Shown here: positions 6,685-7,016 of the stretch, in pieces
Numbering within the stretch: the first letter of the stretch is position 1
How the letters are laid out: every line of letters starts with the position of its first letter
From: a virus
Direction: 5' to 3' (one strand)
Length of the DNA stretch: 37,227 bases
IMG/VR virus record: IMGVR_UViG_3300029955_000077
The notes under the pieces: model-generated
Told to the model about the DNA's origin: nothing
Seen by the model: only the letters and a program-made list of their open reading frames with translations
Databases searched by the model: none
Program-made: the position numbers and the translations under genes

Positions 6685-6713
6685 TTGACAAATTTTCCAA
6701 CTATCAGTATTAT
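6685..6713 (+). promoter_or_regulatory. sigma70-like promoter TTGACA-17-TATTAT
   Basis: Consensus -35, 17-nt spacer, 5/6 match at -10. No long ORF downstream before the tRNA island. Confidence 0.55.
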
Positions 6714-6839
6714 ATAAAGAGTAGTTGGCTCGGAACGAGCCATCAGGCGTTAACGTAGAAGTATTAAATTCAAGCGTAGCCTGAGAATCTTTATGTATGG
6801 GGAGAACCCGCATTTAAAAGAAGTTCAAGGAATACGAGA

Positions 6840-6962
6840 ATGACCTTTAGAAAATCCAATACGAATGTCGCCTCTAAGCAGGGCGAACGCCAGCGGAAGC
6901 ATAATAATCGCTGGTTTGGTGCTGCGGGTCTGTTTCTCGTGGATTCAACGGATGTAGTTTAA
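6840..6962 (+). CDS. possible small basic protein (40 aa)
   Basis: AAGGAA site 7 nt before the ATG. It lies inside the promoter-to-terminator transcript and could simply be a non-coding RNA. Confidence 0.2.
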   Translation: MTFRKSNTNVASKQGERQRKHNNRWFGAAGLFLVDSTDVV

Positions 6963-6986
6963 TCCGAATCCAAAACGAGATTAGCA

Positions 6987-7016
6987 GGCCCACTGAAAAG
7001 TGGGCTTTTACTTTTT
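6987..7016 (+). terminator. rho-independent terminator
   Basis: GGCCCAC-tgaaaa-GTGGGC followed by TTTTACTTTTT. Confidence 0.6.

Follow-up and report, generated by a model that had tools for sequence, protein, structure and literature searches.

The window analysed here is a stretch of 37,227 nucleotides (nt) of viral DNA (IMG/VR record IMGVR_UViG_3300029955_000077) in which all genes lie on the plus strand, and the element in question is the region at 6685–7016, directly upstream of a tRNA gene island. The region opens with a sigma-70-type promoter (6685..6713, plus strand) with the −35 hexamer TTGACA (6685–6690), a 17-nt spacer and the −10 hexamer TATTAT (6708–6713). This promoter agrees with the consensus at 11 of 12 positions, has a predicted transcription start at ∼6720 and is the best promoter-like site between 5500 and 9500; it is one of six loose TTGACA-type matches on the plus strand of the 37-kb window. 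A Shine–Dalgarno (SD) sequence AAGGAA (6827..6832, plus strand) lies 7 nt before the start codon of a leader open reading frame (ORF) of 40 codons plus stop, MTFRKSNTNVASKQGERQRKHNNRWFGAAGLFLVDSTDVV (6840..6962, plus strand, ATG at 6840). It is followed by an intrinsic terminator (6986..7016, plus strand), whose stem AGGCCCACU / AGUGGGCUU (6986–7007) contains 9 pairs, 5 of them G–C, with a GAAA loop and a T-tract to 7016. The tRNA-Trp(CCA) gene begins at the next nucleotide (7017–7092, plus strand, by ARAGORN; Rfam start 7018), and tRNA-His(GTG) comes after it (7120–7199, plus strand, by both ARAGORN and Rfam). There is no room for a promoter between the terminator and tRNA-Trp, therefore tRNA-Trp and tRNA-His can be expressed only by read-through. 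We propose, with a probability of roughly two in three, that 6685–7016 is a functional ribosome-mediated (leader-peptide) attenuator of the Trp-His-Arg-Asn-Gln-Lys(-Phe) tRNA island.

A sequence-only reading of this DNA had pointed to the promoter, to the terminator abutting tRNA-Trp, to a tri-loop hairpin soon after the promoter (UGGCUCG-GAA-CGAGCCA, 6726–6742) and to the lack of a long ORF, and all of these are present as described: no ORF longer than 58 codons overlaps 6640–7016. A possible 40-aa ORF was mentioned there in passing; the ORF does exist, but it is not incidental, as it carries the SD sequence AAGGAA and forms the conserved core of the region. Between the two functions offered by that reading, a small RNA (sRNA) or an attenuating leader for transcription of the tRNA island, the comparative evidence supports the leader, acting through the 40-codon ORF.

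Conservation and codon content of the leader

Matches to consensus promoters and terminators alone are no proof of function, because such sites are no more numerous in the 4-kb region than shuffling predicts (7 promoter-like sites versus 6.2 expected, and 4 terminator-like sites versus 3.7 expected). What speaks for function is therefore conservation among relatives, together with RNA structure. Searches of GenBank phages by blastn gave no nucleotide match for the region or for the surrounding 8 kb, and tblastn with the window's RlaP protein found cultured relatives in GenBank phages that were all ≤35% identical. IMG/VR searched with single proteins gave nothing, and relatives were recovered only with an alignment query; related loci were gathered via the syntenic pair of a vault-like protein gene and the RlaP gene. 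In ten other lineages, whose RlaP is 35–63% identical to that of the window, a short ORF, a stop codon and a terminator precede tRNA-Trp. The homologous ORFs have 27–40 codons and start with ATGAC, most are preceded by a purine-rich SD-like sequence, and in most relatives a promoter-like site lies at the matching relative place, with a 5′ untranslated region of about 20–25 nt. Their terminators (−11 to −17 kcal/mol plus a T-tract) begin 25–35 nt past the leader stop codon. The nucleotide sequences of the leaders differ between lineages, and it is because the same relative positions are kept in ten lineages with differing sequences that the promoter and terminator rise above chance. In a sister strain, L040, the −35 and −10 hexamers are identical and the spacer differs; its leader (L040 130–590 compared with window 6640–7100) has one Ala codon fewer, a Thr-to-Met change and one Gln codon CAA in place of CAG.

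Analyses of frame, codons and substitutions refer to ten leader versions; an eleventh, L043, stands outside them and has an intact ORF of 38 codons and a terminator. Frame 0 is open in all ten, frame +1 is closed in all ten and frame +2 is closed in 7/10. Codon differences among the ten leaders comprise 171 synonymous versus 700 non-synonymous changes, differences at codon positions 1, 2 and 3 number 435, 511 and 624, and the C-termini are unalignable and variable in length. The leader peptide has no Pfam or PHROG family, and two large protein searches found no homologue outside the phage group. A frame that is kept while its amino acids drift reads as the signature of a leader peptide rather than that of a folded protein. 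An exhaustive HMMER search with the peptide returned one extra match (P0123), which was set aside as unrelated, being an ORF across an 87-nt tandem repeat on a eukaryote-like contig. On 49 contigs the leader ORF is annotated as a hypothetical protein; in practice, gene callers miss such leader ORFs or give them this name.

The island that follows the leader contains, after tRNA-Trp and tRNA-His, genes for four tRNA-Arg, two tRNA-Asn, tRNA-Gln, tRNA-Lys and tRNA-Phe up to 9448, with further tRNA-Arg(TCT) and two tRNA-Lys(TTT) genes at 11632–11875. Relatives have the same tRNA gene order with tRNA-Trp first, and the island specificities are Trp, His, Arg (CCG, GCG, ACG, TCG, and TCT or CCT), Asn, Gln(CTG) and Lys (CTT, TTT), with Phe in the window. 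These specificities recur in the leader itself. Leader codons 3–26 form a putative sensor stretch (6846..6917, plus strand) with codons for Phe, Arg (AGA), Lys (AAA/AAG), Asn, Gln (CAG), Arg (CGC/CGG), His and Trp (6912–6914). In the window leader, 17 of the 26 codons after ATG (6843–6920) are read by island tRNAs, versus a background of 0.26 taken from the window's long genes (binomial p = 2.8e-5), and only 1/13 codons in the 3′ part of the ORF are so read. When the ten leaders are pooled, island-read codons make up 106/220 in the 5′ part versus 10/119 in the 3′ part (Fisher p = 7.6e-15, a value that overstates independence, as the leaders are related).

Trp, His, Arg, Asn, Gln and Lys are each present in 10/10 leaders, for which the chance is 5–17% per random peptide of such length. 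The correspondence extends to the choice among synonymous codons. CAG, which accounts for 31% of Gln codons in window genes, is the only Gln codon in the ten leaders, and Gln(CTG) is the only Gln tRNA of the islands; for Arg, the window leader uses AGA and its island has tRNA-Arg(TCT), and most relatives use AGG and have tRNA-Arg(CCT). The codon content of the leader appears to track the downstream tRNAs. No further leader-type ORFs were found ahead of the later tRNA clusters of the island.

Alternative folding and the Ser/Leu island

The whole transcribed region (6720–7016) folds at −98.7 kcal/mol, far better than shuffled sequences (z = −4.17), and it contains a long hairpin at 6924..6993 (plus strand; −33.2 kcal/mol, z = −6.33, 0/200 shuffles as stable), a candidate antiterminator. 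Its 5′ strand consists of ORF codons 29–39, the last 11 sense codons, its 3′ strand is the post-stop region, and the leader stop codon (6960–6962) lies in its apical part. In the basal helix, GGGUCUGUU (6926–6934) pairs with AGCAGGCCC (6983–6991), so that 6986–6991, the first six bases of the terminator 5′ arm, are shared by the basal helix and the terminator. In L040, a G-to-A change converts a U–G pair of the basal helix to U–A. Equivalent hairpins with different sequences and an apical stop codon are found in all relatives (z = −1.5 to −5.8); z is ≤ −2.9 in 8/10 leaders, the base of the hairpin abuts or overlaps the terminator arm, and in 10/10 leaders the best ORF partner for the terminator 5′ arm lies at the homologous place. 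Two smaller hairpins, P1 (6868–6872 with 6882–6886) and P2 (6890–6895 with 6909–6914), are predicted inside the sensor stretch.

We simulated the position of the ribosome by placing it at each codon, with the RNA free from +12 and the terminator 3′ arm not yet made. In 12/12 leaders the terminator arm is paired upstream until a sharp boundary, after which pairing largely collapses. This boundary marks where the cognate-codon cluster ends: in the window it follows directly on Trp25, in relatives of the NNRWFG type it follows Asn-Asn or Arg, and in the Ser leaders described below it comes 1–2 codons beyond the Ser-rich stretch. In nascent folds without a ribosome the terminator arm is still sequestered, therefore the default without translation would be read-through, a three-segment variant of attenuation. 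Support for the switch consists of the stability of the hairpin, the positional homology and the sharp boundary.

The post-stop motif (C)UCCAAAACGAGAUU (window 6963–6982) supplies the 3′ strand of the long hairpin; several relatives have it too, and it looks like the anticodon loop of tRNA-Trp, CUCCAAAAC. A decayed tRNA or tRNA mimic at 6962–6988 was considered and rejected: the 82% identity over 28 nt to the tRNA-Trp anticodon arm is non-significant (E = 0.49), is not universal and falls on a hairpin strand.

At gathering thresholds, Rfam finds only tRNAs in the region. A permissive scan of 6500–7700 gave a match to Trp_leader (RF00513) at 6911–7013 with 26.2 bits (E = 0.0085 in a 1.2-kb search), which does not reach the gathering score of 41 and is a lead only, not family membership; T-box (RF00230) had no match in the same permissive scan.

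The phage group has a second island, with three to four tRNA-Ser genes and tRNA-Leu(TAA), and the same layout is found ahead of it in two relatives (L032 and L016). If leader composition tracks the tRNAs, a Ser-rich leader is expected at a Ser island, and this is what both relatives have. In L032 (a 455-kb contig), a promoter TTGACA-17-TATTAG is followed by MVRIHALSSSSSSSRSGSGGVGVCL and then by a terminator; its codon series TTA, TCG, TCG, TCC, TCA, AGT, AGC, TCC covers all four Ser isoacceptor classes of the island, plus TTA for tRNA-Leu(TAA). The L016 leader is MTRLHTISSSCSSCIGAAGGVGV, and both contain runs of five to seven Ser codons. In both, most or all of the terminator 5′ arm (GCCGCC) can pair with an ORF segment GGCGGC(UG), and nascent folds stalled at the Ser run give a hairpin of −27 to −40 kcal/mol with most of the terminator arm sequestered and the stop codon apical. 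On these folds, the Ser leaders are predicted to be attenuators of the his/phe type placed ahead of tRNA genes, and they argue strongly against the Trp-island ORF as a mere basic-peptide gene. Permissive Rfam scans of the Ser leaders gave nothing meaningful. A further Ser-island leader suggested by a pattern scan in L042 was a lone match due to chance.

The window phage has a Ser island of its own outside the window, where the proteins flanking the island have no homologues near the Ser leaders of the relatives. In this copy (L001 1840–1962) a 7-codon mini-ORF, ATG TGG GGG AGA ACC CGC ATT TAA, lies in frame with a relic Ser-rich stretch, K R S S T S S S N ..., itself without an ATG; the shared frame has a chance of 1 in 3, or would reflect stop-codon read-through.

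The repeated cassette and the neighbouring genes

Between the promoter and the leader ORF lies a 5′-leader cassette of ∼103 nt (6722..6825, plus strand), flanked by AAAGAGT and AAAGAAGT, with three predicted hairpins: H1 (6726–6742, the tri-loop), H2 (6743–6784) and H3 (6785–6826). It is moderately structured, with fold z-scores of −2.6 to −4.2. The sister strain L040 is without 6722 to ∼6825, so that its promoter is followed by about 25 nt and then ATG, and otherwise keeps the flanks, promoter hexamers, leader ORF, hairpin, terminator and tRNA-Trp. From this comparison the cassette appears to be a polymorphic insertion or a gene-conversion tract. The attenuator layout exists without it, in L040 and in all more distant relatives. 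The sequence-only reading had treated the tri-loop hairpin as part of one unit with the rest; this has to be revised, as the hairpin sits in a segment that L040 does not have and that recurs at two further stable-RNA loci.

A ∼95% identical copy of 6677–6827, that is, of the promoter and the first ∼115 transcribed bases, is found ∼10.5 kb upstream ahead of tRNA-Ser(GCT) (L001 1727–1878), and a 93% identical copy of the cassette is found ahead of a permuted tmRNA (L006 and others). The promoter copies are identical, spacer included, at the Ser island (L001 1734–1762) and at the tmRNA (L006 1829–1857). A scan of the metagenome collection found the cassette in three contexts only: the Trp island, the Ser island and the tmRNA. 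Among the changes between copies, one keeps an H1 pair (G–C to G–U) and another breaks an H2 pair. A short ORF in the cassette (6793–6843, overlapping the leader start codon as ATGA) is not conserved among the three copies and was not deemed functional. The cassette might serve stable-RNA units as a leader for co-regulation or antitermination, it might stabilise the 5′ end, or it might be a neutral product of recombination. Within the attenuator reading, the cassette would be a second, later layer on top of the attenuator.

The tmRNA is of the permuted (two-piece) type (L006 1967–2180; RF04321, 74.4 bits), with a tag ending in ...AFAAAA and a terminator behind it. A CyVA-1 RNA (RF02965, 43.3 bits) follows this terminator at L006 2266–2346, and the tmRNA locus also occurs in L034 and L037–L039; the tmRNA and CyVA-1 locus probably lies in another part of the same phage genome. 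One contig with the tmRNA copy of the cassette, L037 (reverse-complemented), contains at 9883–9957 a tRNA-Pyl(CTA)-type gene by ARAGORN, a possible amber suppressor. Several metagenome assemblies of the window phage, among them a JGI contig of 152.9 kb, end at the cassette or beside it (ends of L004 and L005, at about window 6871 and 6636), consistent with a repeat that confuses assemblers.

Upstream of the leader, the window encodes a major-vault-protein-like protein of 826 aa (1684–4164) with shoulder and vault-repeat domains (PF11978 at 3.6e-26, PF17795), and an RlaP ‘RNA repair pathway’ nucleotidyltransferase (4441–5274), which always follows the vault-like gene. The pair is syntenic in every relative fetched, with a Band_7 protein added in L011; a phage vault-like protein beside RNA-repair and tRNA genes is unusual. 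HNH endonuclease genes (5353–5682 and 10431–10976) flank or interrupt the tRNA island, and two small helix-turn-helix ORFs, overlapping paralogues of 65 and 62 aa (7301–7498 and 7488–7676), lie between tRNA-His and tRNA-Arg. Auxiliary genes unusual for a phage encode an amino-acid permease (12474–13790), an ADP-ribosylglycohydrolase (15738–16871), an M24 (methionine-aminopeptidase-type) peptidase (16810–17604) and a Ku protein (21377–22315). Peat and permafrost metagenomes are rich in the window phage, with contigs of up to 178 kb.

Inside the island, an odd tRNA at 8961–9031 has a 6-nt anticodon loop, ATTAAC; ARAGORN reports it as ‘tRNA-???’ with a two-base anticodon and Rfam as a tRNA with 44.5 bits, and it could be a defective or suppressor-like tRNA. 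A similar oddity is present in L043 at 10036–10106. Another tRNA, at 11075–11148, was found by Rfam (36.6 bits) and not by ARAGORN. In relatives, an ORF of 144–177 aa with the core domain of histidyl-tRNA synthetase (HisRS; PF13393, PF00587) lies between tRNA-Trp and tRNA-His (L007 15124–15657, L008 16523–16990, L012 12112–12645 and L013 16813–17247). These ORFs are too short for a full HisRS, and the window phage is without one.

Proposed attenuation and its alternatives

The anatomy of the region, its conservation, the match of codons to tRNAs and the position-dependent alternative folding in silico are what the analysis shows, and from them we infer translation of the ORF, ribosome stalling and regulated read-through. 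In the proposed mechanism, RNA polymerase would initiate at the consensus promoter, and a ribosome would load at AAGGAA/ATG and translate the 40-codon leader, the first two thirds of which would sample the codons read by the island. If reading is smooth, the ribosome would enter the last third and the stop codon and unzip the 5′ strand of the 6924–6993 hairpin; the terminator (6986–7007 plus T-tract) would then be free to form, and transcription would end before tRNA-Trp. If the ribosome is delayed in the sampler by scarcity of a charged cognate tRNA, or if the leader is not translated, the long hairpin would form first, the terminator 5′ arm would be tied up, and the polymerase would read through into the tRNA genes. 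Termination would hence require active, unimpeded translation of the leader, and the phage would in effect produce its tRNAs on demand.

Several results weigh against this mechanism. With a stall exactly on the Trp codon, the hairpin and terminator overlap by 5–7 nt in 6/10 leaders and by only 1–2 nt in the four of the NNRWFG type; in our folds, the latter would need a stall two or more codons before Trp. When the upstream 75 nt were shuffled, the G+C-rich arm was still 58% paired on average versus 81% observed (per-sequence P = 0.1–0.55). Because this shuffle control was not significant, sequestration of the arm alone was dropped as evidence, and gene-end terminators yielded too few cases (n = 1) to serve as a control. 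MAFFT and RNAalifold on the ten leaders gave no useful consensus, since terminators and hairpins were misaligned, and hence no column-wise covariation statistics; per-sequence folds were used in its place. No anti-antiterminator or protector (1:2) helix was identified, P1 and P2 lying inside the sampler. As for codon content, the Trp-island leader is without a single-codon run, with one Trp codon and one to two His codons, and the CAA of L040 departs from the CAG rule. At the peptide level, the N-terminus MT-x-RK-x-N shows fair conservation, and the basic 5′ part is reminiscent of arginine-rich RNA-binding peptides. Finally, the Ser-island leader of the window phage itself is decayed: it has no start codon, its antiterminator segment is deleted and its terminator is kept. 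Attenuation may thus be relaxed or overridden in the window lineage, perhaps by the inserted cassette.

The conserved N-terminus bears on the possibility that the ORF is an ordinary small-protein gene, for example for an arginine-rich RNA-binding peptide, with its own promoter and a leaky terminator and in an incidental position. Such a gene would account for an ORF that is kept in all ten analysed lineages, intact in L043 and provided with an SD sequence; the composition rich in Arg, Lys, Asn, Gln, His and Trp also resembles arginine-rich motifs such as the N-terminal arm of lambda N. It would not account for a C-terminal third that is unalignable and variable in length while its RNA hairpin is conserved, for the dominance of non-synonymous changes in a peptide that has no Pfam or PHROG match and no homologue outside the group, for the Ser-run peptide in the shared layout of the Ser/Leu island, where composition tracks the tRNAs and not a peptide fold, or for the match at codon level, in which Gln is CAG only and AGA versus AGG follows the Arg tRNA of the island. 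We regard this explanation as unlikely. A little less likely is that the cassette (6677–6827) works as a processive antitermination leader of the put or boxA kind, or as a stabilising leader, with the ORF and terminator as evolutionary leftovers. The cassette is confined to three sites, each in front of stable-RNA genes (the two tRNA islands and the permuted tmRNA), which speaks for this, as do the old Ser-island leader that decayed behind the cassette while its terminator persists, the two or three hairpins just past the start site as in putL and putR (PMC9378689), and a boxA-like core UCUUUA. However, neither sequence comparison nor Rfam links the cassette to put, nut or boxA leaders, its tmRNA copy has a mutated boxA-like core (UCUUCA), one change between copies breaks a predicted pair of hairpin 2, and L040 keeps the leader ORF, hairpin and terminator without any cassette, while in the window the ORF, SD sequence and hairpin are intact too.

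Two further explanations leave the ORF without a role. In one, the region would produce a stand-alone structured sRNA of ∼290 nt acting in trans, with the ORF fortuitous. The strong predicted structure (z = −4.2) and the promoter and terminator of its own are in keeping with this, and there is a precedent, since terminated attenuator RNAs can serve as sRNAs, as rnTrpL does in Sinorhizobium (PMC7968998). Yet an open frame with a conserved ATGAC start survives indels in 10/10 leaders, its codons match the downstream tRNAs, the 5′ third is missing in the sister strain, and no Rfam match exceeds threshold; the Rfam search proposed in the sequence-only reading returned no sRNA family. An sRNA as primary function, as that reading had offered, is improbable on these grounds, and terminated transcripts of ∼290 nt would still be expected as a by-product of attenuation. 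In the other, the leader would be a translation-independent riboswitch, which would bind uncharged tRNA in the manner of a T-box, or a protein such as the Trp synthetase TrpRS at the UCCAAAAC motif. The CCAAAACGAGAUU-like conserved post-stop motif does resemble the tRNA-Trp anticodon loop in several relatives, but the motif is missing in L007, L012 and L016 and makes up one strand, the 3′ one, of the long hairpin, Rfam returned neither a T-box nor any other match, and both the conserved open frame and the Ser-run leaders would be left unexplained; of all the explanations we give this one the least credence. Most of the probability that does not go to the leader-peptide attenuator falls to a small-protein gene or to a cassette that overrides an ancestral attenuator.

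A leader-peptide attenuator at this site would have much in common with the trp operon leader of enterobacteria (trpL; RF00513): a promoter-proximal short ORF with Trp codon(s), and a hairpin from the 3′ part of the ORF in competition with an intrinsic terminator that lies in front of the regulated genes, with ribosome position deciding the outcome. It would differ in that tRNA genes are regulated and not biosynthetic enzymes, that the single Trp codon is one among six or seven specificities, that the ORF has 27–40 codons versus 14, and that without a 1:2 protector helix an untranslated leader would read through. Multivalent leader peptides are known for ilvGMEDA (Leu/Val/Ile) and thr (Thr/Ile), and leaders with a single-codon run for hisL, pheL and leuL. 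The Trp-island leader is like ilv and thr in carrying several regulatory codons, and the five-to-seven-Ser leaders of L032 and L016 are like his and phe with their run of one codon; unlike all of these, the codons here match downstream tRNAs to the isoacceptor level and not the product of a pathway, and the leaders belong to a phage.

In function, attenuators of synthetase genes come closest. In Escherichia coli, pheST is controlled by a leader-peptide attenuator with pheM. In Bacilli, a leader-peptide attenuator with a His-codon leader precedes hisS paralogues (PMC2965389). There too the sensed quantity is charged cognate tRNA and the product belongs to the decoding apparatus; here the product would be the tRNA itself, in a direct loop of supply and demand, and sensing would be multivalent. 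T-box riboswitches likewise choose between terminator and antiterminator by the state of a specific tRNA ahead of genes of the translation apparatus, but a T-box binds uncharged tRNA directly and has no ORF, whereas here a conserved ORF, predicted to be translated, is present and no T-box motif is found.

The cassette (6677–6827) calls for separate comparisons. Like the promoter/stem-loop (PeSL) cassettes of T4-type phages (PMC2839356, PMC4122927), it is a near-identical promoter cassette at several genome sites, polymorphic between close strains and with boundaries resembling recombination joints; a PeSL, however, consists of a terminator stem-loop with an early promoter behind it, next to variable protein genes, whereas in the cassette the promoter comes first, with ∼100 nt of transcribed hairpins behind it, and each of the three copies stands ahead of stable-RNA genes. 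Like HK022 put RNA and the boxA/nut leaders (PMC9378689, PMC3177189), it is a structured leader RNA close to the promoter, lies upstream of terminators and occurs more than once in a phage genome, but there is no similarity of sequence or model, so that the likeness is analogy and not membership. By analogy, the cassette may be said to resemble PeSL in behaviour and put RNA in position, and it fits the definition of neither.

A full-text literature search, with incomplete coverage and hence giving absence of evidence only, found no report of leader-peptide attenuators ahead of tRNA genes. The proposed mechanism is of the trp/his/phe/ilv type; it differs in tRNA genes as the target, a multivalent sampler matched to isoacceptors, the three-segment design and the occurrence in a virus. 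With a promoter of the sigma-70 consensus and an intrinsic terminator, the 330-bp region lends itself to cloning in front of a reporter in a standard host. Further cases can be sought by looking for tRNA arrays that are preceded by a short ORF and a terminator and whose tRNAs correspond to the codons of the ORF.

The role of phage tRNAs is still debated, with compensation of codon usage, replacement of degraded host tRNAs and evasion of tRNA-targeting defences as proposals. For this family of large environmental phages as a whole, we lean slightly towards the view that each tRNA island is led by a ‘codon-sampler’ peptide, whose delayed or lost translation opens the tRNA genes, making it a demand sensor for decoding capacity. 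If the attenuator functions as proposed, leader-peptide attenuation, a classic mechanism described for amino-acid biosynthesis and for a small number of synthetase genes, would gain tRNA genes as a target and viruses as a setting. Expression of phage tRNAs would be tied to decoding demand, an idea that becomes directly testable, and phage tRNAs would be expressed when their host counterparts run short, fit phage codon usage poorly or are destroyed by host anticodon nucleases.

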